This document shows positions 29,841-44,531 of a DNA stretch of 64,000 nt, piece after piece. The DNA comes from Candidatus Poribacteria bacterium (GTDB lineage: Bacteria; Poribacteria; WGA-4E; WGA-3G): contig CBDANF010000003.1 of assembly GCA_965197475.1 (NCBI GenBank), forward strand, positions 1,472,001 through 1,536,000, written 5' to 3'. Made by a program: the position numbers and the translations under genes. The first letter of the stretch is position 1. Each line of letters begins with the position of its first letter. The notes beneath the pieces are model-generated. The model searched no databases and had not been told where the DNA came from. It saw nothing but the letters and a program-made list of their open reading frames with translations.

Positions 29841-31958
29841 TTAGTCCTGCAATTTAAAATCGCCCCACCTTGTAATGAGTTTACCACTTGCGGACACAAG
29901 CCCTCTCAACCGCACCGTGGCCAACTGCTCGCGAACCCCCGCATGCGACACATCCTCTATCCGATAATAGTAGACCGTATTCAATTTCGCTGTGGTATCA
30001 GTCCAGGTATATTCGTTGCGTTCACCTATGGTGCCAGCACCTTGAATGAGTTCGGCGTTGACAACTTTGAATTCACCATCCTTTGTTTCACTACGGTAGA
30101 TGTAAAAACCCGCGTTGTCCACCTCCGACTCCGTTGTCCATTTGAGGATAACACCAGTCGCTGAGTGTTCTGCTCGGAAATGGGATAGGGTGACGGGCAA
30201 CGCACCACCGCTTCCAACACCTGGTGCCCCGATGTCGTTAGGATGACCATAATAGGAGGTAGTCCTAGTAAGAAGTTTCGTATTTTTTGCGGAAATCCAT
30301 TCAGCTGCATCGGTTCCAAGGCGTGACACATCATCGTTATACCGACGAATCATTGAGGTGCGTATTCCATCTTTAGTCACACTTTTTGGAAGGACCCAGA
30401 CAAGTTTATCCTCAGCGTTTGCACTACTATTGATGTTTCCTACCTCATCAATTAGTTTATCTGATTGTGTCAGTTTGAGATGAAATCCTTTTTCACTTAG
30501 TATTTTACCCTTCAAACCGTGCAGTACATTTATGTCATAAACTTGTTCCTTTGAAATAGTGTTGGAGAATCGTCCTCGTTTCGAGATGATCAAGAGTGTA
30601 TCTTTAGGTTCAATTATTCTCTTTTTAAAGTTGATCGTTACATTCAACTTTCCATTAAAGTCTGCTGATTGCTGGTTTTGTATATCAAGTTTCCAACCTT
30701 CCAGATTTATCTCGTCTGTATTTGACAGATTGCAAAGTTCTATCCACTGTGGTAAACGACCGTCATTTGAAGCAACCATAATTTCACTGATGATGATTTC
30801 AGGTATTTGTGCTGCGGTGATAATCGACTTTAAATGTTTTGGATGGGGCATCAGTATTCCATTACGAGGTTCATCCCATTGAAAGAAATCCGGGTTGTCA
30901 GCCTTGTGGACAATTACATCATTAAACTGTTCAATGAGAGCTTGTGGTGCCCTGTTGTCAATCATATATTGGTACAAATCGGCACCGACAGGATAATCAA
31001 CACCGACTCTGTCATAGAACGCGATAAAGTTTGGGCTGAACCTACGAAAAGCCTCACACGAATAAAGATAATTGGCTTGAGCGACTTGGTTGCTTATCAT
31101 ATTGTTTCGTGAATATTCATACGCTTTTCGTATTAGGTCAATACGGCCTATGAGTACGTCCTCAAGATTTGGATTGGCCGCAAACAGGTTGTGATACTGA
31201 TGGTCAGGATTGATTTCATGAATTTTCTCAATAGTCCAATCATCCAACGTATACCCGCCGTTGGGCAAGTCTGAAGCGACATAATATCTTGCATACTTAG
31301 AAAAAATATGCAAGTCTTCAAAGCCTGCTTTGTTACAGGGTCCACCCATATCAATGACACCTAACAGTTTGCCCAACGACTCACTCCAGAAACTCAAAAA
31401 CGCATCTGCGTGATCCGGATTCAATTGTCCCGCAAATAACCTGCCACCAGGTCCTCCATGCCCACTATACGCTAAATGATGTTCAGAACTTGGGTGCTGA
31501 TTCACTAAATATAACACAATATCCATGAACGTTGATTTTAGGAAGAGACTTCTCTCAACGGTCCAAGCGTCCGGCATGTCTGTATATTTTCGTATCAGGA
31601 ATTGCTCTCGATAAGCACTCATTTGCTCACCAGTCTTCTTTTCGTCTGGGATTAATCCATAAGAACCGTCATAATCATTGGGGAGCTCATAAAGATGTAC
31701 AGAAGAAGTTTCCTCCCATATAGCGACTTCATAATATTTGAGAACTTCGCTTTCCTTTAGCAGAACAGCTTGGGTCCAGCCACCTGCAGACGCAAAGGGC
31801 ATCCAATCTGGGGTGACACGCACAACCCTTAGCATTACATTGGGAACAGATACCGGCGGCGGTGGCGAGGTGCCGCCCGGTGCTGATTCAGATTTAGTTG
31901 TCATTGCGCACAAAAAACTCAAAAGAATGAAATAAAATATACATCTTCGCAATTTCAT
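29841..31958 (-). CDS. Secreted clostripain/caspase-fold peptidase-like protein with a lamin-tail domain and GKLITRWG tail
   Basis: AYSGHGG (His-Gly) and DMGGPC (Cys) dyad pattern; IIISEIM...QWIEL.N lamin-tail motif; LPVTLSHF...WTTESEVDNAGF. Confidence 0.7.
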   Translation of the reverse strand: MKLRRCIFYFILLSFLCAMTTKSESAPGGTSPPPPVSVPNVMLRVVRVTPDWMPFASAGGWTQAVLLKESEVLKYYEVAIWEETSSVHLYELPNDYDGSYGLIPDEKKTGEQMSAYREQFLIRKYTDMPDAWTVERSLFLKSTFMDIVLYLVNQHPSSEHHLAYSGHGGPGGRLFAGQLNPDHADAFLSFWSESLGKLLGVIDMGGPCNKAGFEDLHIFSKYARYYVASDLPNGGYTLDDWTIEKIHEINPDHQYHNLFAANPNLEDVLIGRIDLIRKAYEYSRNNMISNQVAQANYLYSCEAFRRFSPNFIAFYDRVGVDYPVGADLYQYMIDNRAPQALIEQFNDVIVHKADNPDFFQWDEPRNGILMPHPKHLKSIITAAQIPEIIISEIMVASNDGRLPQWIELCNLSNTDEINLEGWKLDIQNQQSADFNGKLNVTINFKKRIIEPKDTLLIISKRGRFSNTISKEQVYDINVLHGLKGKILSEKGFHLKLTQSDKLIDEVGNINSSANAEDKLVWVLPKSVTKDGIRTSMIRRYNDDVSRLGTDAAEWISAKNTKLLTRTTSYYGHPNDIGAPGVGSGGALPVTLSHFRAEHSATGVILKWTTESEVDNAGFYIYRSETKDGEFKVVNAELIQGAGTIGERNEYTWTDTTAKLNTVYYYRIEDVSHAGVREQLATVRLRGLVSASGKLITRWGDFKLQD

Positions 31959-32045
31959 TAAGTTACCTCACTTTTTATGTTATTGCGTCTATAACTTCTG
32001 ATTATGTTTGAGATCACTCCATTTTGTTAGAAGTTTACCATGGGT

Positions 32046-32070
32046 GGAAGGGTGTTGTTTTCACCCTTCC
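32046..32070. terminator. Hairpin, probably the original 3' terminator of the 3475-aa gene
   Basis: GGAAGGGTG-7 nt-CACCCTTCC perfect 9-bp stem, 30 bp from the element edge. Confidence 0.45.
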
Positions 32071-32194
32071 GGTTGTATAGATACAATTTACTTATAGTTT
32101 GTATCAAATGACCCCATGAGTTATACTATTAGTATTCGTTAAACTAACGAGTAGATGTCCTCGGATCCCCGATAATCTATTCATGGAGGTCAAT

Positions 32195-32995
32195 ATGAAC
32201 CGCAAGAAGGATACCGCTTACGGTATCACTCGGCTCGAATCCAAGAATGCCAGAGCCGCGATTATTCAGAAGATTTCAGCAGACTTTAATCTAATGCCTC
32301 TCGTTGCTGAAGCCTACTATAAACAGATTTCCACCTACTTTGAACAACACGCCGATGTGCACCTGACATCAGGGCAAATCTGCTACGAGGCAGTCGCCGC
32401 AGAGGAACCCGCAGGTAAACATATCGCTTTAGCGAAAAAAGTTTCCTGTCGGCTAACTCTCAATGACACAAACGCCGATCTTGAAGTCTTAGCGAATTAT
32501 GGTCTCGCAGGACTCAGACGGCATCGGATCCTCCGATTGACCCAAGAAGCTTATGACCAAGATGCCTTACTGAGCTACGAGGATTTAGCTGTATTATTAA
32601 CCACCAGTCCTGCTACAGTCAAACGCGACATTCGACACTTGAAGCAGGATGGGTATTTCGTTATGACGCGCGGGACGAAACACGACATGGGCCCCGGCAC
32701 TTCTCATAAAACCCAGGTCCTGGAGTTATATTTCAAAGCCTATACCTTCACCGAAATCGAGAAAAAGACGAACCACAGCGAACGAGCTGTCTACCGCTAC
32801 TTGAAAGACTTTACACAAGTCGCTACGCTCCATCATCAAGGCTTTCCTAACGCACAGATACGCCTGATCACCCATCTATCTGACCGGTTGATCCGCGAGT
32901 ATCTCTCACTCTATGAGGAATACCAACACACAGATCGCATAACCCAACTCCTTCACCCAGAACCTGAGGACACAAAAAAGGGGGACCTCTCATGA
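32195..32995 (+). CDS. DUF1670-like protein A (multiple HTH-like segments)
   Basis: GGAGG RBS; EAYDQDALLSYEDLAVLL, TRGTKHDMGPGTSHK, HSERAVYRY; family recognised from memory. Confidence 0.75.
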   Translation: MNRKKDTAYGITRLESKNARAAIIQKISADFNLMPLVAEAYYKQISTYFEQHADVHLTSGQICYEAVAAEEPAGKHIALAKKVSCRLTLNDTNADLEVLANYGLAGLRRHRILRLTQEAYDQDALLSYEDLAVLLTTSPATVKRDIRHLKQDGYFVMTRGTKHDMGPGTSHKTQVLELYFKAYTFTEIEKKTNHSERAVYRYLKDFTQVATLHHQGFPNAQIRLITHLSDRLIREYLSLYEEYQHTDRITQLLHPEPEDTKKGDLS

Positions 32996-33876
32996 GCAAA
33001 CCTCTAACCCGCACGCAAATCAACGAGAAGAAATTCAGACGCATCAACGATAAGTCCCTACGACAGTTGCTCATTCACCGCTTTCTCAATGACTATGGTT
33101 ATGACAAAGGCGAAGTCACTGCCACCGCCATTGTTGATGATATTCTTAAGACCGTTGAAGACTATTTCGTGATTACCCTTCCTTTGGAGAAACTCGCCAC
33201 CGGCGATCAACTCCCGGATGAGCGTTTCTTGAGTTATGGACAACTCGTTTGGATGGCCGTCCCTATTGAAGAGCATCCAGAAAGAGGAAAGTCCATCGTC
33301 AAAACCCGCATGAAACCCGTCATCCTGACTTACCTCGCCGCAGAGGATATTGAATCCTTTCGCAACGGTTTCACCTCCCGGCAATTGCGGATCAATCGCT
33401 TGGTCCGCTGGTGTCATCAAGCTTATGACCAAGGGGCATTATTGACACAACTCGACTTGGCAGTTTTGCTCAATGTCTGCGATGCCGTTGTCTGTGATTA
33501 TGTTAATGAATGGCAAAAAACCACTGGAGAACTCTTGCCCACCCGTGGCAATATCCATGACTTATCGGGGGCTATTACCCATAAGAAAGAGATCATAACC
33601 CTCTATCTTCAAGGACATCTCACCCCCAGGATTGCCGCAAAGACCAAACACTCTAAGGAGGCAGTTGACCGATACATTCGCGATTATGAGAGCGTCAAAG
33701 TCGTTCGGAAAGCAACCGCAGATATTGATAAAATCTCACAGATTACACGACTTTCTAAACGCGTCATCTCTCAATATCTCGACCTCATACCGCAGCACCA
33801 ACTCCAAGCCATAGATGCAGACCTTGCCAATTCAGACTCAAACGATGAAGCCACTCACCAAGGAGAAGCCCAATGA
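32992..33876 (+). CDS. DUF1670-like protein B, paralog of A, translationally coupled
   Basis: ATGA overlap; QAYDQGALLTQLDLAVLL, PTRGNIHDLSGAITHK, HSKEAVDRY. Confidence 0.75.
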   Translation: MSKPLTRTQINEKKFRRINDKSLRQLLIHRFLNDYGYDKGEVTATAIVDDILKTVEDYFVITLPLEKLATGDQLPDERFLSYGQLVWMAVPIEEHPERGKSIVKTRMKPVILTYLAAEDIESFRNGFTSRQLRINRLVRWCHQAYDQGALLTQLDLAVLLNVCDAVVCDYVNEWQKTTGELLPTRGNIHDLSGAITHKKEIITLYLQGHLTPRIAAKTKHSKEAVDRYIRDYESVKVVRKATADIDKISQITRLSKRVISQYLDLIPQHQLQAIDADLANSDSNDEATHQGEAQ

Positions 33877-33943
33877 GACCCTAATCCTATGTTCCCGACG
33901 AACTTTACTTCGCAAAACCGGGGCAGGTGCCTTGAAAATATGG

Positions 33944-33972
33944 TTGACAACCGCTACTGGTTTTGCTATACT
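33944..33972 (+). promoter_or_regulatory. Consensus sigma70 promoter inside the element's right end
   Basis: TTGACA-17 bp-TATACT with extended -10 TG. Confidence 0.75.
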
Positions 33973-33978
33973 TTAGAC

Positions 33979-34104
33979 ACGTTTATCGCTAAACGCATCA
34001 TTTCTCAAAGAGGATGCTCGCGATCCCAACGCAACCCACTCATCAACGATCGCTGGGAAGCCAATAAACATCAGCCTTCCAGCTATCCTATGGTCATTTG
34101 ATAC
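33979..34104 (+). ncRNA. Candidate structured non-coding RNA
   Basis: Downstream of the promoter with no credible ORF; successive stems CGTTTA/TAAACG, GCATC/GATGC, GCGATC/GATCGC (22-nt loop), GCTGGGAAGC/GCCTTCCAGC. Confidence 0.4.
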
Positions 34105-37100
34105 TATTTTCGTATTAACATTTTGCGTGTAGCAGTGAAATCGCCAGCAGTGAACATATAGAAGTAGACACCACTTGCCACCTTTTCACCGATGTTGTTT
34201 CTGCCATCCCAATGCGCAGCACGGCTGCGAGCCTGATACAGGCCTGCACGCTGATGTCCTAAGTCTAATGTACGCACTACATGTCCCTTGATGTCGTATA
34301 TTGTCAACGTGACATCGGCAGGTTTTGACAACTGATACGGTATCCACGTCTCTGGGTTAAACGGGTTGGGGTAGTTTGCTGCAAGCGCGTTCTCTCGACT
34401 CGCAGTAACCGTTACTTGCGCGGTAAGTGCTGGTCCGTTGTATTCTGCGATAGCGTCTGCGCCAACGGTTATGGTCAACGTGCCATCTGTAGTGAGATTT
34501 CCGTCAAAGGTCAATTCAATGGTGATCTCCGTGTCGCTTTGTCGGTCTATGTCAAAGGTGCCTACGGTAACACCCGATATACCGGTAACAGATACGGCAT
34601 CACTAATGACAAAGATAGACCTTTCAAATTTCCTGCCGCTGAGTGTGAGTGTAATGACGCTCCCATCCAGTGCAGCCTCAGTCAAAGGTGCAGCAGTTGA
34701 GGCAGACACTGATTCTGAAACAGCAGCGACAGATATTTGTGTCGTGAGTGCTGGTCCGTTGTATCCTGCGATAGCGTCTGCGCCAACGGTTATGGTCAAC
34801 GTGCCATCTGTAGTGAGATTTCCGTCAAAGGTCAATTCAATGGTGATCTCCGTGTCGCTTTGTCGGTCTATGTCAAAGGTGCCTACGGTAACACCCGATA
34901 TACCGGTAACAGATACGGCATCACTAATGACAAAGATAGACCTTTCAAATTTCCTGCCGCTGAGCGTGAGTGTAATGACGCTCCCATCCAGTGCAGCCTC
35001 AGTCAAAGGTGCAGCAGTTGAGGCTGCCACCGATTCTGAAACGGCAGCGACAGATATTTGTGTCGTGAGTGCTGGTCCGTTGTATCCCGCGATAGCTTCC
35101 GCTTCAACGGTGATAGTAAGCGTTGCATTGGTATCAAAGTTAGTGCCGTCAAATTCAAGTTTTATAGTAGCTTCCGTATCGCTTTCTTTGTCAGGGTCGT
35201 GCCAAGGGATTGTTACGCCAGCAATACCAGAAACAGATACCGCATTTCTAATGTCAATAGAACTTGCGTATTTCCTACCACTCAGTGTGAGTGTGACGAC
35301 ACTTCCGTGTAGGGTCGCCTCTGTCAAAGGTTCAGTAGTTGAGGCAGACACAGACTCCGTGTTAGCAGTGACCGGTATTTGTGCTATGAGATTGTCTCCA
35401 TCATAATCTTTAATTGCCGCTGCTCCTACAGATACCGTGAGTGTGTCATCAACAGTTAGATTGCCTTCATATTCAAGTTCAATCGTAACTTGTGTATCAC
35501 CGACACGAGTCACACCAAAGGTGTCAACGGTTACCCCTGTTATTCCGGATAGTGTGATTGCATTTCTGATTGTAACACTGGAACGATCAAAAACACCATT
35601 AACAAGTTTTAGAGTAATGACACTTCCATGCAATGTTGCTTCTGTAAGTGAAGCACCTTTGGATACGGTTAAGGTAGGGGTTGCGCCAACAGATTGTGGT
35701 TCGCTTTCGTCCTCATCATCTTCAACCACTTCAACTTCTTCAAGCTCCTCACTCTCTTTGATCTCTTCTTTTGGCGTTACTTCTTTTATCTGCCACGTAT
35801 TACCATCTATTCGCTCAGCAACAAAATTATGCTTCACGCCATTGATCGTACCCTTACTTTGAATGATCGTATTCTTACCTTGAGCGATTTGAAATAAACC
35901 ACCACCTACATGTGATGCAGAACCGTTTTCACGAACTGTAAATGTGCTATTTGTGCCGGGGTCAATACAACTGTCGCCTGGTTCCAACAGGTCTCCCACC
36001 GCACAGTAGTTTTGATCAGAAACATCCGTTTCTGAAACATCTGTTATGTTGATGGTGATATCAATACTATCAGTACCTCCGTTCCCATCCGAAACAGAGA
36101 CCGTAACAGAATAAGATGACTTCGTTTCATAATCCAATGCTGCGTTTGTCTGCAGTTGCCCAGTGGAAGTATCAATGCTAAACGCAGCCGCGTCCGTGCC
36201 AGTAAGGCTATATGTAAGTGTATCCTCACTATCCGCATCGGTTGCAGCGACAGCAGTCCCTATATTTTCACCCGCAGCAGTGTTCTCGGCAATGGAGCGT
36301 GTGGTGCTGTCGCCATCACTAAATACAGGGGCATTGTTTAAGGTTGCATCATCAGGTTGTGTATTACTCCTGTTATCTGCAATCTCCTTGATTTCCCAAG
36401 AATTTCCATCAACCTTTGTAGCGACGAAGCGGTATTCCTTATTATCTACCGTTGCGGAGATACTCATTGAATCATCATTAGAAACTTGGTTTATCCAGCT
36501 GAGCAACCATGGTAAGTTCGGAATATTCCATTTCGACCTCCCATCTTCTGACACTGAGAAAACAGCCTCAGAATCGGGATAGGTGCAGCTTTGTCCTGGT
36601 GTAAGAATGTCTCCTACCTGACACACGTTAGTTGTTGTATCAGTTCCAACCGATTCTGTTTCCGCTACATCAGTGATATTGATGGTGATCTCTATCGTAT
36701 CAGTGCCGCCTCTGGCATCAGAGACAGTGATGATGACAGAAAAGGATGACTGAGTCTCATAATCCAAAGCAGCCATTGTTTGCAGTTGCCCCGTAGCAGT
36801 ATCAATACTAAACGCTGCAGCATCCGTGCCACTAAGGCTATATGTAAGTGTGTCTCCGCTATCGGCATCAGCTGCAGAAACTGGTGTGCCGATGTTTTGC
36901 CCCGATTCAGTGTTTTCGGCGACAGAACGTGTCGTGCTGCTACCATCCGTGAAAACTGGTGCTGTGTTTGTAACGACAGCATCGAATACTGCCAGAGGTA
37001 GTTCTGCAGATTTGACAAACGCATATCCACTGTGGTTATGAGGTAATTCCGGTAATGTGTCAATATCCACAAGCACAGCATCCGTTGTTCCAGTAGTTCG

Positions 37101-40100
37101 ACTTACTGTAAAGACTTCACTCTCTACACTACCTGCAGAAATCGTAATATTCGTTGTACCACCGCTGATGCTCCCATCGGTAACGCTGATCAGCAGCACA
37201 ATATCAAACGGCGCGCCCGTGGGTGCTACTGCCTTAAACTGTCCATCTGCTACCTTTTCCAGTGAAACGTTAATAGGAAATGGGTCAACTGTGTTACCAC
37301 CCAAGCTGACCAAACTCAGCCTATTTAAACCTTTAAAGATGCCATCCGGCAGCGCACTCAAATCGTTGTTAGCCAACGAGAGTTCACTTAGTGATGTAAG
37401 TCTGTCAAAGATGCCAGCAGGCAACGTGGTAAAAGCATTGTTACCCAAGTGGAGCGTCGTCAGTGCGGTGATATCATCAAAGATGCCAGCAGGCAACGTG
37501 GTCAACTCGTTGGCATACAAGTAGAGGCTGTCGAGTGCGGTGAGACCATCAAAGATGTCAGCCGGCAAAGTGGTAAAAGAGTTGGCATACAAGGCGAGGC
37601 TGTCGAGTGCGGTGAGACCATCAAAGATGTCAGCCGGCAAAGTGGTAAAAGAGTTGTTACTCAAGTAGAGCGTCGTCAGTGTGGTGAGACCATCAAAGAT
37701 GTCAGCCGGCAACGTCGTCAACTCGTTGTCCCTCAAGTAGAGGTTGTCAAGTGCGGTGAGACCATCAAAGATGTCAGCCGGCAAAGTGGTCAACTCGTTG
37801 TCCCATAATCTGATCGTTGTCAGCGCGGTGAGACCGTCAAAATCACCGGATTTTAGGGCTGTGATGCCTTTGTTACTTAAGTTGAGTACCGTAATAGCGG
37901 CGAGGTGTGCTTCAGTCACATCCGCTGCATTATTTACGCCCGGCACTGCCTCCACAATCGCATCGCGCACCTGCGGCGTGCGGTTCCCTAACAAAGAACG
38001 GATTTCTGGTAATGGGTAGCTTAATGGTAAATCCGCAGATTTAACGAGTGTATACCCAGCGTGGTTTGATGGGAGGTTCGGTAATGTCCCGATATTTACG
38101 GTGACAGCCCCGGTGGTGTCAGGGGTTCGCGTCACTGTAAGCACTTCACTTTCCACACTACCTACGGAGATTGTGATAGTGCTTGCACCGCCTACAATGC
38201 TACCATTCGTTACGCTAATCGGTAACACAATAGTGAACGTCGCACCAGCGGGTGCAACTGCTTTGAACTGCCCATCTGCAACTTTTTCCAAAGAGATATT
38301 TAACGGTAGCGGATCAACTCCGATTTCACTTAATTGGAGTCCATTTAGTGAGGTAAGTCCGTCAAAAATTCCTGCGGGTAACGCAGTTAAAGCATTTCCG
38401 GTAAGGCCAATCCCTTGCAGTGCGGTAAGTCCCTCAAATACACCCGCTGGCAGTGTTGTCAATTGGTTGTGAGATAGGTCAATCTCTTGCAGTATGGTAA
38501 GTCCCTCAAATACACCCGCTGGCAGTGTTGTCAATTGGTTGTGAGATAGGTTAATCCCTTGCAGTGCGGTAAGTCCCTCAAATACACCCACTGGTAACGA
38601 GGTTATATTGTTACCAGGCATGTGGATACTTATAAGTTCAATGAGTCTGTCAAATACACCCAGTGGTAATGTGTTCAATTGGTTGTTTTCTATTGCAAGT
38701 TTTGTCAGTGAAGTAAGTCCGTCAAATATTCCCGCTGGCAGTGTGGTCAATGGGTTGCCAGATAGCCCGAGTGTTTCAAGTGCGGTGAGTCCGTTAAAAA
38801 TATCCGCTGGTAAGGATATTAATTCGCAGTCGAATATAGTGAGAGTATTAAGCGAAGTGAGACCGTCGAAATCACCGTGCTTTAGTGTAGTGATGTTCTG
38901 ATCAGATATATCCAACTCTTCAATAACAGTAAGGTGTGACTTCGTCACTTCCGCAGCAGAATTTACGTCCGGTATTGCATCCACAATAGCATTGACTACC
39001 TGTGGGGTGCGATGGCTGATCGGTGTGAATACTTCACCACCAAACTCGTTGAACACTAGTGGCAGATCATCGGATTTGACAAGTGTATAGCCAGAATGTT
39101 TTTCTGCTAACTGCGGTAATGTCTCAATATCCGCAGTAACTGCAAACGTTGTGCCGGGAATGCGGCTGACAGAGAAGATTTCGCTTTCCACATCTCCTAC
39201 TGGAATTGTAATATTTTCAACACCGACATCAATAACTCCATAAGCGATCCTGAGTGTGAGTTCAAGATCAAAAGGTGCACCAGAAGGAACAACTGCTTTA
39301 AACTGACCGTCACCAGCATGTTCAAGGCCGACACTAAGCGGCAGCGGGTCAACAGGATTACCTTTCAGATTGATAGTGGTGTCTGGGATAACTAAGTCAT
39401 CTGGTATTATGGAATCCTGTGAAATCACCTCACCTGTGATCAAATAGATGTAAAATGCTTTTATGGTAAAGTCATCTCTGTCATCAAAAATTCCTTTGAA
39501 GATACCTGTTGTCAATGAACGGAACTGGTTGTTCGCCAAATTAACGGCATTCAATGATGGAAGATTCTCAAATAGTCCTGCTGGTAACATCCTCAACTGA
39601 TTGTTACTCATATCTAATATTACCAATTTCGTGAGATTGTCAAAAATACCATCCGGTATTGAATTTAATTCGTTAGAGGATAGATTGAGCACGTTCAGGT
39701 TGGTGAACGTGTCAAAAATAGTGATTGGTAACGAGTTCAAATTGGTATTGGATATAAACAGGGTTCTCAGATTCGTGAGATATTGGAAGATGTTATCTGG
39801 CAATGTTGTGAATTCGTTGTTGTCTAACCCGAGTGCATCAAGGTTGGGCATGCCATCAAAATCACCGGGTTTTAGTTCTGTAATGTTCTTATTGGTCAGA
39901 TCCAGCACGGTAATAGCTGCGAGATGTACCTCAGTTATATCTGTAGCAGTATTGACACCCGGTACTGCGGCTACGATCGCATCTTGCACCTGTTGCGTTC
40001 GGTCAGTTACAGGTGTGTCACCGCTAAAGTCTGGTACTTGTGTCCCAGATATATCGTCTGGTAGAGTCAATACGATTAGGTTCGTCAGGTGGTCAAAATC

Positions 40101-43100
40101 GCTCCTTTGCACAGATATCAACGGGTTATTCGACAGATACAGGTGTGTCAGGTTGGTAAGATTGTGAAAGGGTCTGTCTGGCAGTGAATTCAACTGATTG
40201 CTGCTTAGGTTCAGTGTTGTCAGATGAGTAAGATTGTCAAAGAGCCCCTCTGGTAATGAACTCAACTGGTTGTTGTTTATGTAAAGTTCTTGCAGGTTGG
40301 TGTTATTGTCAAAAATGCCGACTGGTAAAGTGCTGATAACGTTGCTGCTTAGGTTCAGTGTTGTCAGATGAGTAAGATTGTCAAAGATCCTATCGGGTAT
40401 TGAACTCAACTTATTCCCATCCAAACGGATTTCTATGAGGTTATCCAGTCCGTCAAAATCACCGTATTTCAGTTCTGTAAGAGCCTGTGAATCACTAAAC
40501 CAATTGCCTCCAAGGTCTAAGTTAGACCCGCCAGAAGACGCATTTAGGGTGGTAATAGCTGTTAGATGTGCTTCCGTAACAAAGTGCCCCATATTATAAT
40601 TTTTCTTAGAATAAACACCATCAATTATGTATTCCCTCTCTACATTATGTAAAGTAGGATCTATCTCAGGTACTGATCCGATGATAGCATCAAGTATCTT
40701 TGGCGAACGTTCTGATACGGGTGTGGGGGCTCCAGGTAAGGCACTTATTACTGTTAGCGGTAATGATGATCTTAAGAATTCATGTACTATTCGACCGTCA
40801 GAGTTTGATAGACTCGGCAATGATACAATGTCTACAATAACTGCAGCAGTTGTGTTAGGAGTACGAGTCATTGTGAGAAGTCCACTTTCTGAATTACCTT
40901 TGGGTATCGTGATGCTGGTTGCACCACCATTGATACTACCATTTGCAAAGATAAGAGGTAGTTCCAAGTCAATCGGTGCAGGGGTTGGTAAAACAGCCTT
41001 AAATTGACCTTCACCAATCTTTTCCAATCCTATGGATAGAGGATAAGGCTTATTTTTGTGATTGAGATATAAAAGCGAGGTAAGGTTATCAAATATACCC
41101 GGTGGTAAGCTCGTTAGATAGTTGTTAAACAGGTGGAGCCTTTCAAGTGCTGTGAGGTTATCAAATATGCCAGCTGGTAATGTCGTTAGAAGGTTGTTAT
41201 GCAGGTGGAGGATTTCAAGTGCTGTGAGGTTATCAAATATGCCAGCTGGTAATGTCGTTAGAAGGTTGTTATGCAGGTGGAGGATTTCAAGTGCTGTGAG
41301 GTTATCAAATAATCCCTGTGGCAACGATGATAACGGGGTGTTATGCAGGTAGAGCACTTCCAACTCACTGAGGTTATCAAATATGCCAGCTGGTAATGTC
41401 GTTAGAAGGTTGTTATGCAGGTAAAGACCTTTAAGCGATGTGAGGTTATCAAATAAACCCTGTGGCAACGATGATAACTGGTTGTAAGACAGGGAGAGAC
41501 TTTCAAGTGCTGTGAGGTTATCAAATATACTCGGTGGCAACGATGATAACTGGTTGCCAGAACTGTAGAGAGACAGGTAGAGCCCTTCCAATGCGGTGAG
41601 GTCATCAAACAAACCCTGTGGCAACGATGATAACTGGTTGCCAGACAGGTCGAGCCTTTGAAGTGCTGTCAAACCACTGAAATCGCCGTGTTTTAGAGAT
41701 GTAATGTTTTGACGACGCAGATATAAATACGTAATTCCAGCAAGATGACTGGCGGTGATATCCGCAATACTCGAAACATTAAGATCATTTGATTTGACCG
41801 CGTTGAGAATCGCTTCTGCTACCTGCGGTGTCCGAACACCGAAAATATACTGGGATGCCGCCGTTGCAGTGAATGTAATCGTCTGCGAAACGTCTTGCAC
41901 ACTGACATCCACGGTGCTTATGCCTACTATATTGCCAAGCGTCAGTGTGCTTTCTGCTATACCGTCTGCATTGGTCGTGACGTTTATTGTGCTGAGTGTA
42001 CCACCCCCTGCTGTGACAGAAAACGTTACAGGCACACCTTCAAATGCTACATCGCTTGCATCCCGCACTTCCACAACAAACGGCTGTGCAAGCGTTGTGC
42101 CGATGTCCGCCTGCTGTGTATCCCCTGATATTTTCTCAACTGCTGTTACCGTGCGATTGTCAAAGTCTACAATAACATTTCTCACCTGCAGTGTAGGTAT
42201 GTGCGTATAGATAGATGGATAACTCAACAGATTACCCCGCGCATCTATCTCGTCATCCATCCCCAATTCTGTGTTTGCCACTAACGGTGATAGATCGGAT
42301 ACAGCGTTATTCTGAAAATATAACTTTCCCAGACTGGTCAAGTTTTGGACAGCGGATATATCCGATATGCTGTTGTTCGGCATATCTAACCACTCAAGAT
42401 TGATTAGGTTCTGAATAGACGATATACCTGATATTGTGTTATTGCCGATGACGAGTTCTGTTAGGTTCGTTAAGCCTGCAACCGCAGAAATATCCGTAAT
42501 AGTGTTTTCATTCAGATATAACTGTGTCAAATTTATCAGATTTGATACCGTTGATATATCTGTAATACTATTTTCATTGAGTCGCAGCTGCGTGAGATTT
42601 ATCAAACCTGATAAATGAGATATATCTGAAATACTGTTCCCCCATAAATATAGCTTAGATAAATTCGTTAAGCCTGATAGAGAGGAAAAGTTCGTGATAT
42701 TGTTATCCCACAGCTGCAACTCTGCGAGGTTCGTCAGTCCCGCAAGTGCAGATATATCCGAAACCGAGTTGTCGCCAAGAATGAGCGTTGTCAGATTGGT
42801 GGCTGTCTCAAGTCCTGTTAAGTTGTTGATACTGGCAGCTTGGGCATTCAACGTCGTGAGTGTTTCCATCTCTGTTTCTGAAATAGTGGCACCAGATGTT
42901 TTACCGAGCGCGGATTCTATTTTTGCACGTAGATTCGCATCGGGAATGTCTACGATAACCTCTGCAGGTGCGGTTACGGTGACACTGACGGCAATGGAGC
43001 AATTGTTATCAGTATTACTCTCACCGGTGACACTATCCACGCAGGCACCGTAATAGTAAGTGCCAGGGGTTGTTGGTGCAGTAACTGTAATATAGCGACG

Positions 43101-44531
43101 GATGGTGTCATTTACACCCAGTGGGTTACTGGGGTATCCACGGATCTGCGTATCCTCTGTCGAGATGACTGCATCCGAGGAGCGATAATACGTTAGGGTT
43201 GTCGCACTCGATTCTGCTGTGCCAGCATTTCTGAGGGTTGCATAGAGTCTAAACTGCTCTCCAGGTTCAACGGTATCGGGAACTGCCTCCACCGCTTCAA
43301 CGACCAAGTCAGGTGTTGATGGGACAACTTCTGCGGGGATACCGAGGGCAATACCGTCTGGAACATTCAACCCAGTGATGACGTCCTCAACGTTTGAACC
43401 ATCCAAGTTCGCACGCTGGATTTTACCGTTAGTAAACCTTTCCGTAGCAGGATTCCAGTCCGTATGTGTCCAATACATCTTTCCACCCACAACATCTAAT
43501 GCTATACCCCATGGAGCCTCCAGTCCGCTTGTGATGAGGTCTTGCACATTAGAGCCATCAAGGTTGGCACGTTGGATTTTATCCGTGCCATGGTCTATCC
43601 AGTACATCTTACCACCCGATACATCTAACGCTATACCTCTTGGAATGCTCAATCCCTGTGTAACGAGGTCTTCGACGTTGGAACCATCCAAATTCGCACG
43701 TTGGATTTTACTAGGACGCAAATTTGTCCAGTACATCTTACCACCCGACACGTCTAACGTTAAACCTGTTGGAGCGTCCAATCCCTGTGTAACGAGGTCT
43801 TCGACGTTGGAACCATCCAAATTCGCACGTTGGATTTTATCTGTCTGATTATCTACCCAGTACATCTTACCACCCGCTATATCTAACGCTATACCAAATG
43901 GAGAAGTTAGTCCGCTTGTGACGAGGTCTTGAACATTAGAGCCGTCAAGGTTTACGCGCTGGATTTTATCCGTGCCAGCATCTGTCCAATATATCGGTGG
44001 GCTATCGGGGTCAACGACAAGGACTTTGGGTTTGGTGGTTGCTGTCGGGGGTGTTGACGGTAAGTCTCCTGTGACCCGAAGAAGAGTTGAACTGACGTAT
44101 TTTTCCCTGACACCATCAACGTTCATCTCGATAACCACCGTGTATTCACCTGCGCTTGTTGGCGAATAGCCGCACAACTCTTGATCGCGTGCTGTAGTCG
44201 GAACATCAACCCATGGACTTGTTGAATTGTCTCGCCTTATCCATTTTGAACTGTGCATTTGGTAGCTGACACCGTTAATCGAAATGGTACCCTCGCCCTG
44301 TATACAACCTCCGATCCCAACACTTTGAAATAGACCTCCAATTCTGAAGACAATGCGATCTTCTGATACAGTAAGTCCGTCTAACACAGTATATCCGGTA
44401 GGTGGCGAGACGTAATTTTCGACGACTTCTATGCTTAATGCGTAACCAACACAAGGCAGCCCACATATCAACAATACCACTATAAGAATTGACATGTTGA
44501 TTTTTCGATTCACAACTAACATTTTCATCAT
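34104..44531 (-). CDS. Giant secreted repeat protein (YWTD/LDL-receptor class B, CARDB, internalin-type and typical LRRs, Big_1, cadherin, tandem ~107-aa repeats, FlgD/T9SS-like C-terminus)
   Basis: 3475 aa; KMYWTD...KIQRANLDGS repeats, PDLVVE, LPAGIFDGLTAL LRRs, NTAPVF...AEN...LDYE cadherins, NYPNPFNPETWIPY...RKMLIRK. Confidence 0.92.
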   Translation of the reverse strand: MMKMLVVNRKINMSILIVVLLICGLPCVGYALSIEVVENYVSPPTGYTVLDGLTVSEDRIVFRIGGLFQSVGIGGCIQGEGTISINGVSYQMHSSKWIRRDNSTSPWVDVPTTARDQELCGYSPTSAGEYTVVIEMNVDGVREKYVSSTLLRVTGDLPSTPPTATTKPKVLVVDPDSPPIYWTDAGTDKIQRVNLDGSNVQDLVTSGLTSPFGIALDIAGGKMYWVDNQTDKIQRANLDGSNVEDLVTQGLDAPTGLTLDVSGGKMYWTNLRPSKIQRANLDGSNVEDLVTQGLSIPRGIALDVSGGKMYWIDHGTDKIQRANLDGSNVQDLITSGLEAPWGIALDVVGGKMYWTHTDWNPATERFTNGKIQRANLDGSNVEDVITGLNVPDGIALGIPAEVVPSTPDLVVEAVEAVPDTVEPGEQFRLYATLRNAGTAESSATTLTYYRSSDAVISTEDTQIRGYPSNPLGVNDTIRRYITVTAPTTPGTYYYGACVDSVTGESNTDNNCSIAVSVTVTAPAEVIVDIPDANLRAKIESALGKTSGATISETEMETLTTLNAQAASINNLTGLETATNLTTLILGDNSVSDISALAGLTNLAELQLWDNNITNFSSLSGLTNLSKLYLWGNSISDISHLSGLINLTQLRLNENSITDISTVSNLINLTQLYLNENTITDISAVAGLTNLTELVIGNNTISGISSIQNLINLEWLDMPNNSISDISAVQNLTSLGKLYFQNNAVSDLSPLVANTELGMDDEIDARGNLLSYPSIYTHIPTLQVRNVIVDFDNRTVTAVEKISGDTQQADIGTTLAQPFVVEVRDASDVAFEGVPVTFSVTAGGGTLSTINVTTNADGIAESTLTLGNIVGISTVDVSVQDVSQTITFTATAASQYIFGVRTPQVAEAILNAVKSNDLNVSSIADITASHLAGITYLYLRRQNITSLKHGDFSGLTALQRLDLSGNQLSSLPQGLFDDLTALEGLYLSLYSSGNQLSSLPPSIFDNLTALESLSLSYNQLSSLPQGLFDNLTSLKGLYLHNNLLTTLPAGIFDNLSELEVLYLHNTPLSSLPQGLFDNLTALEILHLHNNLLTTLPAGIFDNLTALEILHLHNNLLTTLPAGIFDNLTALERLHLFNNYLTSLPPGIFDNLTSLLYLNHKNKPYPLSIGLEKIGEGQFKAVLPTPAPIDLELPLIFANGSINGGATSITIPKGNSESGLLTMTRTPNTTAAVIVDIVSLPSLSNSDGRIVHEFLRSSLPLTVISALPGAPTPVSERSPKILDAIIGSVPEIDPTLHNVEREYIIDGVYSKKNYNMGHFVTEAHLTAITTLNASSGGSNLDLGGNWFSDSQALTELKYGDFDGLDNLIEIRLDGNKLSSIPDRIFDNLTHLTTLNLSSNVISTLPVGIFDNNTNLQELYINNNQLSSLPEGLFDNLTHLTTLNLSSNQLNSLPDRPFHNLTNLTHLYLSNNPLISVQRSDFDHLTNLIVLTLPDDISGTQVPDFSGDTPVTDRTQQVQDAIVAAVPGVNTATDITEVHLAAITVLDLTNKNITELKPGDFDGMPNLDALGLDNNEFTTLPDNIFQYLTNLRTLFISNTNLNSLPITIFDTFTNLNVLNLSSNELNSIPDGIFDNLTKLVILDMSNNQLRMLPAGLFENLPSLNAVNLANNQFRSLTTGIFKGIFDDRDDFTIKAFYIYLITGEVISQDSIIPDDLVIPDTTINLKGNPVDPLPLSVGLEHAGDGQFKAVVPSGAPFDLELTLRIAYGVIDVGVENITIPVGDVESEIFSVSRIPGTTFAVTADIETLPQLAEKHSGYTLVKSDDLPLVFNEFGGEVFTPISHRTPQVVNAIVDAIPDVNSAAEVTKSHLTVIEELDISDQNITTLKHGDFDGLTSLNTLTIFDCELISLPADIFNGLTALETLGLSGNPLTTLPAGIFDGLTSLTKLAIENNQLNTLPLGVFDRLIELISIHMPGNNITSLPVGVFEGLTALQGINLSHNQLTTLPAGVFEGLTILQEIDLSHNQLTTLPAGVFEGLTALQGIGLTGNALTALPAGIFDGLTSLNGLQLSEIGVDPLPLNISLEKVADGQFKAVAPAGATFTIVLPISVTNGSIVGGASTITISVGSVESEVLTVTRTPDTTGAVTVNIGTLPNLPSNHAGYTLVKSADLPLSYPLPEIRSLLGNRTPQVRDAIVEAVPGVNNAADVTEAHLAAITVLNLSNKGITALKSGDFDGLTALTTIRLWDNELTTLPADIFDGLTALDNLYLRDNELTTLPADIFDGLTTLTTLYLSNNSFTTLPADIFDGLTALDSLALYANSFTTLPADIFDGLTALDSLYLYANELTTLPAGIFDDITALTTLHLGNNAFTTLPAGIFDRLTSLSELSLANNDLSALPDGIFKGLNRLSLVSLGGNTVDPFPINVSLEKVADGQFKAVAPTGAPFDIVLLISVTDGSISGGTTNITISAGSVESEVFTVSRTTGTTDAVLVDIDTLPELPHNHSGYAFVKSAELPLAVFDAVVTNTAPVFTDGSSTTRSVAENTESGQNIGTPVSAADADSGDTLTYSLSGTDAAAFSIDTATGQLQTMAALDYETQSSFSVIITVSDARGGTDTIEITINITDVAETESVGTDTTTNVCQVGDILTPGQSCTYPDSEAVFSVSEDGRSKWNIPNLPWLLSWINQVSNDDSMSISATVDNKEYRFVATKVDGNSWEIKEIADNRSNTQPDDATLNNAPVFSDGDSTTRSIAENTAAGENIGTAVAATDADSEDTLTYSLTGTDAAAFSIDTSTGQLQTNAALDYETKSSYSVTVSVSDGNGGTDSIDITINITDVSETDVSDQNYCAVGDLLEPGDSCIDPGTNSTFTVRENGSASHVGGGLFQIAQGKNTIIQSKGTINGVKHNFVAERIDGNTWQIKEVTPKEEIKESEELEEVEVVEDDEDESEPQSVGATPTLTVSKGASLTEATLHGSVITLKLVNGVFDRSSVTIRNAITLSGITGVTVDTFGVTRVGDTQVTIELEYEGNLTVDDTLTVSVGAAAIKDYDGDNLIAQIPVTANTESVSASTTEPLTEATLHGSVVTLTLSGRKYASSIDIRNAVSVSGIAGVTIPWHDPDKESDTEATIKLEFDGTNFDTNATLTITVEAEAIAGYNGPALTTQISVAAVSESVAASTAAPLTEAALDGSVITLTLSGRKFERSIFVISDAVSVTGISGVTVGTFDIDRQSDTEITIELTFDGNLTTDGTLTITVGADAIAGYNGPALTTQISVAAVSESVSASTAAPLTEAALDGSVITLTLSGRKFERSIFVISDAVSVTGISGVTVGTFDIDRQSDTEITIELTFDGNLTTDGTLTITVGADAIAEYNGPALTAQVTVTASRENALAANYPNPFNPETWIPYQLSKPADVTLTIYDIKGHVVRTLDLGHQRAGLYQARSRAAHWDGRNNIGEKVASGVYFYMFTAGDFTATRKMLIRK
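34426..35096. repeat. Near-identical 321-bp tandem intragenic duplication
   Basis: AGTGCTGGTCCGTTGTAT recurs every 321 bp; two encoded 107-aa units are essentially identical. Confidence 0.9.

Follow-up and report, generated by a model that had tools for sequence, protein, structure and literature searches.

A conserved outward promoter and a predicted non-coding RNA at the right end of a DUF1670 insertion sequence from Candidatus Poribacteria

We studied the right end of an insertion sequence (IS) in a 64,000-nucleotide stretch of a Candidatus Poribacteria genome (contig CBDANF010000003.1). This whole stretch is "the window" below, and positions given without a contig are positions in it. The element encodes two paralogous DUF1670 proteins, ORF1 and ORF2, and beyond ORF2 it carries an outward-facing promoter followed by about 130 nucleotides of predicted non-coding transcript (Table 1). 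A first-pass annotation had suggested that this segment is a guide or bridge-like RNA for the DUF1670 pair, or else that the promoter produces an RNA antisense to the adjacent adhesin gene. We consider it likely that the interval is a real promoter-driven non-coding unit and that it is not a guide. Its role is less certain. Our favoured reading, to which we give somewhat less than an even chance, is that the right-end module is a clade-specific insulating or antisense unit that faces host transcription.

Results

The outward promoter is conserved in related right ends

We scanned positions 31500-35000 for promoter-like and terminator-like consensus sites. The right-end promoter, which had been annotated as TTGACA-17-TATACT with an extended -10, has a hexamer score of 11/12 and is the best of the 8 promoter-like sites in the scanned region. 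Shuffled versions of the region contain 5.1 +/- 2.4 such sites, so one site is not above chance, and the case for the promoter rests on its conservation. Among 53 distinct right ends from related elements (200 nt each), 44 match the hexamers at 10 or more of the 12 positions and 49 have the TG of the extended -10. In 39 of the 53 right ends, the element terminates 134-136 nt beyond the -10 hexamer, and in another 7 this spacing is 102 nt. The annotated promoter is thus well supported by its relatives.

These right ends are of three types. (Type A is the window's; type B belongs to elements whose proteins are ~80% identical to the window's; and type C is short, with ~33 central nucleotides gone.) In an alignment of 17 whole elements, column conservation is ~0.8-0.85 in the genes and 0.49-0.62 in the spacer that precedes the promoter. 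It rises to 0.63-0.74 across the transcribed segment and is highest, at 0.88-1.0, over the final 34 nt.

The annotation saw no credible open reading frame (ORF) downstream of the promoter, and we agree, with a caveat. A 70-amino-acid ORF with an ATG start (33889-34101) overlaps the region; it begins upstream of the promoter and has no match in Pfam. We rejected it as a gene: at 27 loci, the longest plus-strand ATG-ORF in the last 240 nt varies from 19 to 78 amino acids, and it reaches 60 amino acids at just 6 of them. We also rejected as coding a small ORF (ATG...TAA) within the predicted RNA, which has 17 codons in the window and 6-10 in its relatives.

The same scan found 5 terminator-like sites in the region, and none on the plus strand between the promoter and the end of the element. 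A search of both strands of 31500-35000 against Rfam at E <= 1 gave no match.

Two of the proposed helices hold up across relatives

The minimum free energy of the whole segment is -27.8 kcal/mol (z -2.45), as compared to z -1.27 for the opposite strand. We tested the helices that the first-pass annotation had proposed one at a time, using 24 A-type sequences.

The 5'-terminal hairpin, H1, shows compensatory changes. Three of its six pairs change on both sides in the 24 sequences, as do all six on a model-fitted alignment of 39 sequences. The changing pairs are C-G (12), U-G (6), or U-A (5) at one position; U-A (13), G-C (5), or C-G (1) at another; and G-C (21) or U-A (1) at a third. The covariation score for H1 is 0.188, versus 0.144 +/- 0.014 for shuffles (none of 500 was as high), and partners slid out of register score at most 0.096. 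The U-G wobbles favour the plus strand as the one that is folded.

The second hairpin, H4 (GCTGGGAAGC/GCCTTCCAGC), has a folding energy of -13.3 kcal/mol on the plus strand (z -3.1) and is conserved, with 88-91% of its cells paired. In the 24 sequences, the innermost pair of H4 is the only one with changes on both sides. The middle helices do not hold up: neither GCATC/GATGC nor GCGATC/GATCGC has a pair that changes on both sides, and two pairs of GCGATC/GATCGC are broken in 13 and 11 of the 24 sequences. Nor is there covariation in the alternative pairing of AGGATGCT with AGCTATCCT, which was supposed to close a multibranch fold; three of its pairs fail to form in 14, 7, and 11 of the 24 sequences, respectively.

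A covariance model built from the two surviving hairpins (R1) matches exactly the 20 right ends of the element in the genome. In the alignment of 39 distinct relatives to R1, which is biased towards the model by the way it was built, 84% of cells are paired and the covariation score is 0.259, versus 0.172 for shuffles (0 of 500 as high).

The right-end segment does not track the insertion target

We then compared right-end RNAs with their insertion sites. Between the conserved motifs CTCAT and GCTGG lies a short hypervariable segment. Across 86 distinct insertion sites, this segment does not predict the target, and the suggested covariation of loop sequences with insertion-site sequences shows no consistent link. 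Two different variants of the RNA occur in identical 40-nt flanks (L012 and L016). Conversely, near-identical B-type RNAs are found in different classes of target: the loop of a palindrome (L031) and the end of a gene for a cargo protein of the type IX secretion system (T9SS; L085). The 6-mers that recur in both RNA and flank (ATCAAC and AACATC) do so at chance level, as ~1.3 matches per strand are expected in each comparison of 115 x 45 nt. The homologous positions in B-type RNAs show no consistent match to the B-type targets either. Within the window's own genome, a comparison of loop variant and flank (T or non-T at flank position 8) was suggestive, with p ~0.12 by hand, but did not hold up robustly in the larger set of sites.

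The most telling evidence against a guide is from metagenomic relatives that lack the segment. In L111 and L112, there are ~30 nt from the stop codon of ORF2 to the right inverted repeat, which leaves no room for the right-end RNA. Both are nevertheless inserted at the ends of genes with a T9SS C-terminal domain. Because L111 and L112 use the same target without the RNA, target choice is probably a property of the proteins or of the core element. Judging from these sequences, the right-end module is probably a later addition to the element family.

Finally, the locus lacks the partners that known guides have. There is no DEDD recombinase beside the segment and no covariation of loops with target or donor, as would be seen for an IS110-type bridge RNA, and neither sequence nor fold searches found the RuvC-type nuclease that goes with a TnpB/IscB omega-RNA. 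Overall, these comparisons do not support a guide or bridge RNA, and the proposal that the RNA is a cofactor or guide of the DUF1670 pair finds support neither in target tracking nor in the relatives without the RNA.

The element inserts into the last codon of T9SS cargo genes

The boundaries of the element are given by an empty site. In a genome from the same genus (G003), the two flanks of the window's element are joined through a single TT at the orthologous site, and the left flank is identical at 392/392 positions. The element therefore runs from 32094 to 34107, with a 2-bp duplication of TT.

The right end abuts the host gene, a 3,475-amino-acid ORF on the minus strand (34104-44531) that is convergent with the element and whose stop codon overlaps the element's terminus. 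The C-terminus of the host protein matches the T9SS sorting domain Por_Secre_tail (PF18962) with 29.3 bits (the cut-off is 27), covering profile positions 2-75 of 75 and residues 32-118 of 120. (An FlgD_ig domain is also found in the C-terminal part, and neighbouring minus-strand ORFs contain LTD and Big_2 domains.) From these domains, the host protein is presumably secreted by the T9SS and adhesin-like.

Read along the host gene, the empty site is ...CGA AAG TAA, and the occupied site is ...CGA AA/A TAG followed by the rest of the element, where the slash marks the junction; the original AAG TAA is found at the far side of the element. This places the insertion point after the second base of the last codon. 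Since the ATAG terminus of the element restores both the lysine codon and a stop, the host protein is unchanged.

This is the element's usual site. In the window's genome, 18 of 20 right flanks encode, on the minus strand, endings such as ...GVYFYTLTAGDFTATRKMLILK followed by a stop, which are T9SS-type C-termini. A motif search of this genome found 41 T9SS-type gene ends of the form lysine-stop, and 18 of the 41 contain the element. The insertions have a single orientation, with the right end convergent with the host gene.

The metagenomic relatives that we reached via a homologue ~39% identical to ORF2 have the same terminal repeat and are likewise inserted at the ends of Por_Secre_tail genes. 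One of them rebuilds an arginine codon and a stop from a CG duplication. B-type elements, on the other hand, are mostly found in the loop of a palindrome, AACCGAGTTTT-TTCTTC-AAAACTCGGTT, that resembles repetitive extragenic palindromic (REP) sequences (loci L051-L068). G060 has 42 copies of this palindrome and G047 has 70, some of them in tandem arrays; the window's genome has a single one. Two B-type RNAs (L085 and L092) are at T9SS gene ends. The genes beside B-type insertions have mixed orientations, according to rough ORF calls.

A proposed insulating or antisense unit

What might a promoter-driven RNA do at the end of a host gene? Our reading draws on the constant convergent geometry, the loss of the host gene's native hairpin, the hairpin on the minus strand, and the outward promoter.

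In the empty site of G003, a hairpin (32046-32070) follows ~20 nt after the TAA stop of the host gene, and because of this position we take it as probably the gene's native terminator. The insertion displaces it 2 kb from the gene. The element brings its own hairpin: on the minus strand, H4 has an energy of -18.7 kcal/mol and begins 16 nt after the host's stop codon. For comparison, in the 80 nt that follow each of 23 unoccupied gene ends, the strongest hairpin has -17.4 kcal/mol. Over 39 sequences, H4 averages -11.1 kcal/mol on the plus strand and -13.1 on the minus, and 23 of the 39 are stronger on the minus strand.

We propose the following. With the native hairpin gone, transcription of the host gene would now enter the element, antisense to ORF1 and ORF2. 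On the minus strand, H4, just downstream of the rebuilt stop, would stand in as the 3'-end or terminator structure of the host mRNA. On the plus strand, the promoter would start a stable non-coding RNA at about 33979, and its transcription would proceed head-on out of the element. This predicted RNA would be antisense to the host's read-through transcript and to the 3' end of the host gene. The choice of target would lie with the proteins and not with the right-end RNA.

The expression data are consistent with transcription of the element. Four metatranscriptome runs from one sponge study contain ~60% of the sampled words of the element. Contigs from these RNA libraries cover the whole element, including 33951-34109, but they are unstranded, give neither starts nor levels, and could reflect carry-over of DNA. 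(In the four runs, the left flank at 31800-32072 is uncovered and the contigs end at the end of the element; with contigs, this does not count as a finding.) Thus, for the annotation's second idea, an outward promoter antisense to the adhesin gene, the geometry stands: the promoter is conserved, there is no terminator-like site on the plus strand, and the host gene is convergent with an overlapping stop. The transcript itself is represented by contigs only.

Several observations weigh against an insulating or antisense role. First, a strong antisense promoter would seem at odds with the way in which the element spares the host protein, and L111 and L112 manage without the module. Second, the structural case has weak points. 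RNAalifold found no consensus fold in 19 sequences (-0.93 kcal/mol); H1 is thermodynamically weak, at -3.5 kcal/mol; H4 has almost no compensatory changes; and in most B-type relatives, H4 is weak on both strands (-4.4 to -5.7 kcal/mol). Third, H4 on the minus strand has no U tract (its tail is GTTGATGAGT) and is not among the 5 terminator-like calls. In this genome, most native hairpins that follow an unoccupied gene end have no U tract either. Fourth, a purely insulating role would not account for the conservation of unpaired motifs (CATCATTTCT, CCAAC, CTCAT, and the loop AATAAACATCA) or for the fixed length of the segment. Fifth, the contigs from the four runs lack the transcript's start, end, and strand.

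Alternative explanations

An unlikely alternative is that the right end matters as DNA. The motifs at 33980-34090 would then be subterminal sites that transposition requires in cis and that are bound by the DUF1670 proteins or by a host factor. The promoter and RNA would be by-products, with the promoter, for instance, autoregulated or merely incidental. This would account for the fixed distance from the -10 to the end, and for the conservation pattern around H4, whose 3' arm is nearly invariant, along with everything beyond it, while the 5' arm drifts. Also, B-type right ends have an internal near-copy of the terminal repeat (CTCATTTGATGAT versus GTCATTTGATACT) at ~60-75 nt from the end, and a miniature derivative of the element retains exactly the last 150 bp. 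But the compensatory changes and U-G wobbles in H1 fit RNA better than duplex DNA, and it is hard to see why by-products would keep their hexamers, spacer length, and TG across all three types of right end. Furthermore, the left end has no matching subterminal motifs. (We found no inverted similarity of the two ends beyond the 13-nt core; the internal alignment score is 13, versus 15.1 +/- 2.4 for shuffles.) And L111 and L112 transpose with their right-end spacer of ~30 nt.

A junction promoter is less likely still. In a circle or a head-to-tail dimer, the right-end promoter would read into ORF1 and ORF2 and give a burst of transposase, and the 5' hairpin would stabilise the leader. The promoter is indeed complete and aimed at the end, with no terminator between them; ORF1 starts just 89 nt inside the left end; and promoters that form across joined ends are known in other IS families. 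Those known junction promoters, however, are split between the two ends, and this one is complete and always on. No right-left junction was found in the element's own genome, in metagenome contigs from JGI, or in GTDB species genomes (although circles could be transient), and the RNA-library contigs contain no joint that leads back into the element. The left end also has its own promoter-like site (32099-32127).

We think it very improbable that the RNA is a cofactor of transposition, whether through bridge-RNA-like loops or as an omega-RNA-like scaffold with a 3' guide copied from the flank. The order of parts (promoter, ~130-nt scaffold, element end, flank) does resemble that of an omega-RNA, and there is the short hypervariable segment. 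There was one hint of a link: in the element's own genome, ATCAAC flanks are found at 0/7 copies with the TAAT variant and at 6/11 with the CAAC variant (one-sided p ~0.025, by hand and uncorrected). But this hint fades once more sites are included: the unrelated segments AAAC and TAGGGG also occur next to ATCAAC, and the same flank is found at L012 and L016 despite their different variants. B-type RNAs serve both classes of target, L111 and L112 reach the same target without the segment, the RNA has no match in Rfam, and the proteins show DNA-binding folds only, with no nuclease or recombinase domain. Given the order of scaffold, end, and flank, a read-out transcript would carry flank-derived sequence at its 3' end; that such a transcript (the ~130-nt scaffold plus an antisense copy of a T9SS gene end), bound by DUF1670 proteins, steers new insertions to paralogous gene ends in the poribacterial branch of this IS family is very improbable as well, and if true, it would be a self-updating omega-RNA-like guide with proteins of no known nuclease or recombinase fold.

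The element, its copies, and its proteins

The coordinates of the features are collected in Table 1.

Table 1. Features of the insertion sequence and its flanks (positions in the window)
Feature	Position	Strand	Notes
Sigma-70-type outward promoter	33944-33972	+	TTGACA 33944-33949, 17-nt spacer, TG 33964-33965, TATACT 33967-33972
Predicted non-coding transcript body	33979-34107	+	Start inferred 7 nt after the -10; no conserved ORF, no plus-strand terminator-like site
5'-terminal hairpin H1, CGTTTA-TCGC-TAAACG	33980-33995	+	-3.5 kcal/mol, z -2.3; compensatory changes
Central segment with the arms of the annotated middle helices	34006-34038 (approximate)	+	Structure not conserved; the short variants (102 nt) lack it
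Hairpin H4, GAT-c-GCTGGGA-a-GC, loop CAATAAACATCA, GC-c-TTCCAGC-t-ATC	34048-34087		Foldable on both strands
Right inverted repeat and terminus, GGTCATTTGATAC-TAT	34092-34107	+	No variation in 36 aligned relatives; also in distant metagenomic relatives
Insertion sequence	32094-34107	+	2,014 bp, termini ATAG...CTAT; 20 left and 20 right ends in genome
Target-site duplication, left copy, TT	32092-32093		Single TT in the G003 empty site
Target-site duplication, right copy, TT	34108-34109		On the minus strand, bases 1-2 of the host's last Lys codon
Left inverted-repeat core, GTATCAAATGACC	32101-32113	+	Perfect 13-nt inverted repeat with 34092-34104
ORF1, 270 aa, DUF1670 (PF07900), helix-turn-helix motifs	32183-32995	+	Pfam E 4e-62
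ORF2, 294 aa, DUF1670 paralogue	32992-33876	+	4-nt overlap with ORF1; Pfam E 1.2e-61
Host gene 3' end	34104-34466	-	TAG stop 34104-34106 from the element; last codon AAA 34107-34109; T9SS sorting domain
Hairpin GGAAGGGTG...CACCCTTCC, 9 bp	32046-32070	-	Left flank; ~20 nt after the TAA stop in the G003 empty site

The right terminal inverted repeat of the first-pass annotation is confirmed; we find its arms to be 13 nt long and perfect. We searched the window's own genome (5.7 Mb in 3 contigs) for copies. Of the 41 occurrences of the 13-nt core, 20 are at left ends and 20 at right ends, with 1 elsewhere, and we found no other elements with the same inverted repeat that might mobilise this one in trans. 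There are 18 full copies (92-100% identical), 1 that is internally deleted, and 1 miniature; ORF2 is intact in 19. The miniature (locus L020, G000:C3:94121-94563) joins ~297 bp from the left of the element to 150 bp from its right and is at a T9SS gene end; it lacks the -35 hexamer but retains the -10 region and all of the transcribed segment. Two other copies in this genome, L014 (C3:845191-847207) and L015 (C2:1160549-1162565), share at least 40 nt of left flank and have different right flanks, of which one is not of the T9SS type; this points to a duplication or to copies that have recombined.

The promoter-like site at the left end reads TTGTAT-17-TATACT, with its -35 inside the left inverted repeat, and falls below the threshold of the scan. 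From its position, it is predicted to drive ORF1.

No catalytic transposase domain is apparent in the two proteins, although our searches barely covered the N-terminal 125 residues. Sequence searches found only DUF1670 and helix-turn-helix (HTH) regions. NCBIfam gave sub-threshold HTH matches only, and a sequence search of the PDB gave nothing meaningful. An AlphaFold2 (AF2) model of ORF2 has a predicted local distance difference test (pLDDT) score of 85. A fold search with this model (VIA-align wide) returned only winged-helix or HTH proteins, at Z <= 6.2 and tied among unrelated regulators; Foldseek returned nothing at E <= 0.001; and the ESM Atlas gave HTH clusters only, below 0.9.

The DUF1670 family has 1,017 clusters (at 50% identity) at E <= 0.001. 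PF07900 was found in 43 of the 176 genomes of the phylum that we searched, all from one order, and close homologues (~91% identical) bear the name Candidatus Poribacteria. A tblastn search of plasmids found no match. Metagenomic members of the family are mostly on contigs of 1-3.5 kb, as expected for repeats. In some proteins the DUF1670 units are joined: at locus L011 (G000:C3:686097-687692), ORF1 and ORF2 are fused in one open frame of 585 amino acids (compare proteins P0133, P0135, and P0183), and metagenomic homologues of 520-950 amino acids have two or three DUF1670 units each.

A more distant relative, on metagenome contigs (L109, L110, and L119), has ~185 nt of G+C-rich non-coding sequence at its right end and no sigma-70 promoter. 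Shuffled versions of this type of right end (168 nt) fold about as well as the native sequence (z -0.87). The right end contains the motif TTTG-19-TATTATTG, which may resemble the promoter consensus of Bacteroidota.

Our literature search, which covered titles and the openings of abstracts, found no paper that names the DUF1670/PF07900 family or describes insertion into the last codon of T9SS genes. With two HTH-only DUF1670 genes, a 2-bp duplication, and last-codon insertion, it seems to represent a kind of IS that has not been described before.

Discussion

Comparison with known systems

In its parts, the right-end unit recalls IS10/Tn10, where pOUT, a strong outward promoter near the end of the IS, makes RNA-OUT, a small antisense RNA that is stabilised by a hairpin and limits the cost of the element. 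However, RNA-OUT overlaps the 5' end of the transposase mRNA, whereas the unit described here lies after the ORF2 stop (33876) and overlaps none of the element's genes. Its antisense partner would be the host's read-through RNA, and it has no sequence or Rfam similarity to RNA-OUT. A search for duplexes between the RNA body and the ORF1 leader in 20 variants of the element gave z of about -1.7 to +1.3 and no conserved site.

Complete sigma-70 promoters that point outward from the terminal ~150 bp are also known as the Pout promoters of ISAba1, IS1, and IS2, which drive or disturb the genes next to them. Unlike those, the promoter here always has a convergent neighbour, so it cannot activate that neighbour, and its transcribed leader shows covariation at the RNA level.

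The bridge RNAs of the IS110/IS1111 family are structured RNAs in a non-coding end of an IS with strong site specificity. But the element here has no DEDD/RuvC-like or Tnp recombinase, no covariation of loops with target or donor, and relatives with the same target that lack the RNA; it also has inverted repeats and a 2-bp duplication. With the omega-RNAs of the TnpB elements (IS200/IS605), it shares the order of scaffold, right end, and flanking DNA. There is no TnpB or IscB here, the element, unlike IS200/IS605, has inverted repeats and a duplication, and the resemblance to a guide is one of layout only.

As for targets, B-type relatives resemble IS1397 and ISKpn1, which insert in the loops of REP sequences: they are found in the loop of a REP-like palindrome, and such targets avoid damage to genes. 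The window's type instead goes into the last codon of a T9SS cargo gene, where it restores both that codon and the stop.

Implications

With the guide-RNA reading removed, what is in place is a testable anatomy: a conserved outward promoter, a 5' hairpin with compensatory changes, and a second hairpin that can fold on either strand. The IS family itself is more unusual than its RNA, as its two proteins are HTH-only and have no recognisable catalytic domain. Should the module at the right end indeed shield the IS from host read-through, it would be an example of an IS that has evolved its own boundary element for life at the 3' ends of genes. This would bear on how sponge symbionts tolerate heavy loads of ISs, and on the expression of the symbionts' adhesin-like surface proteins.

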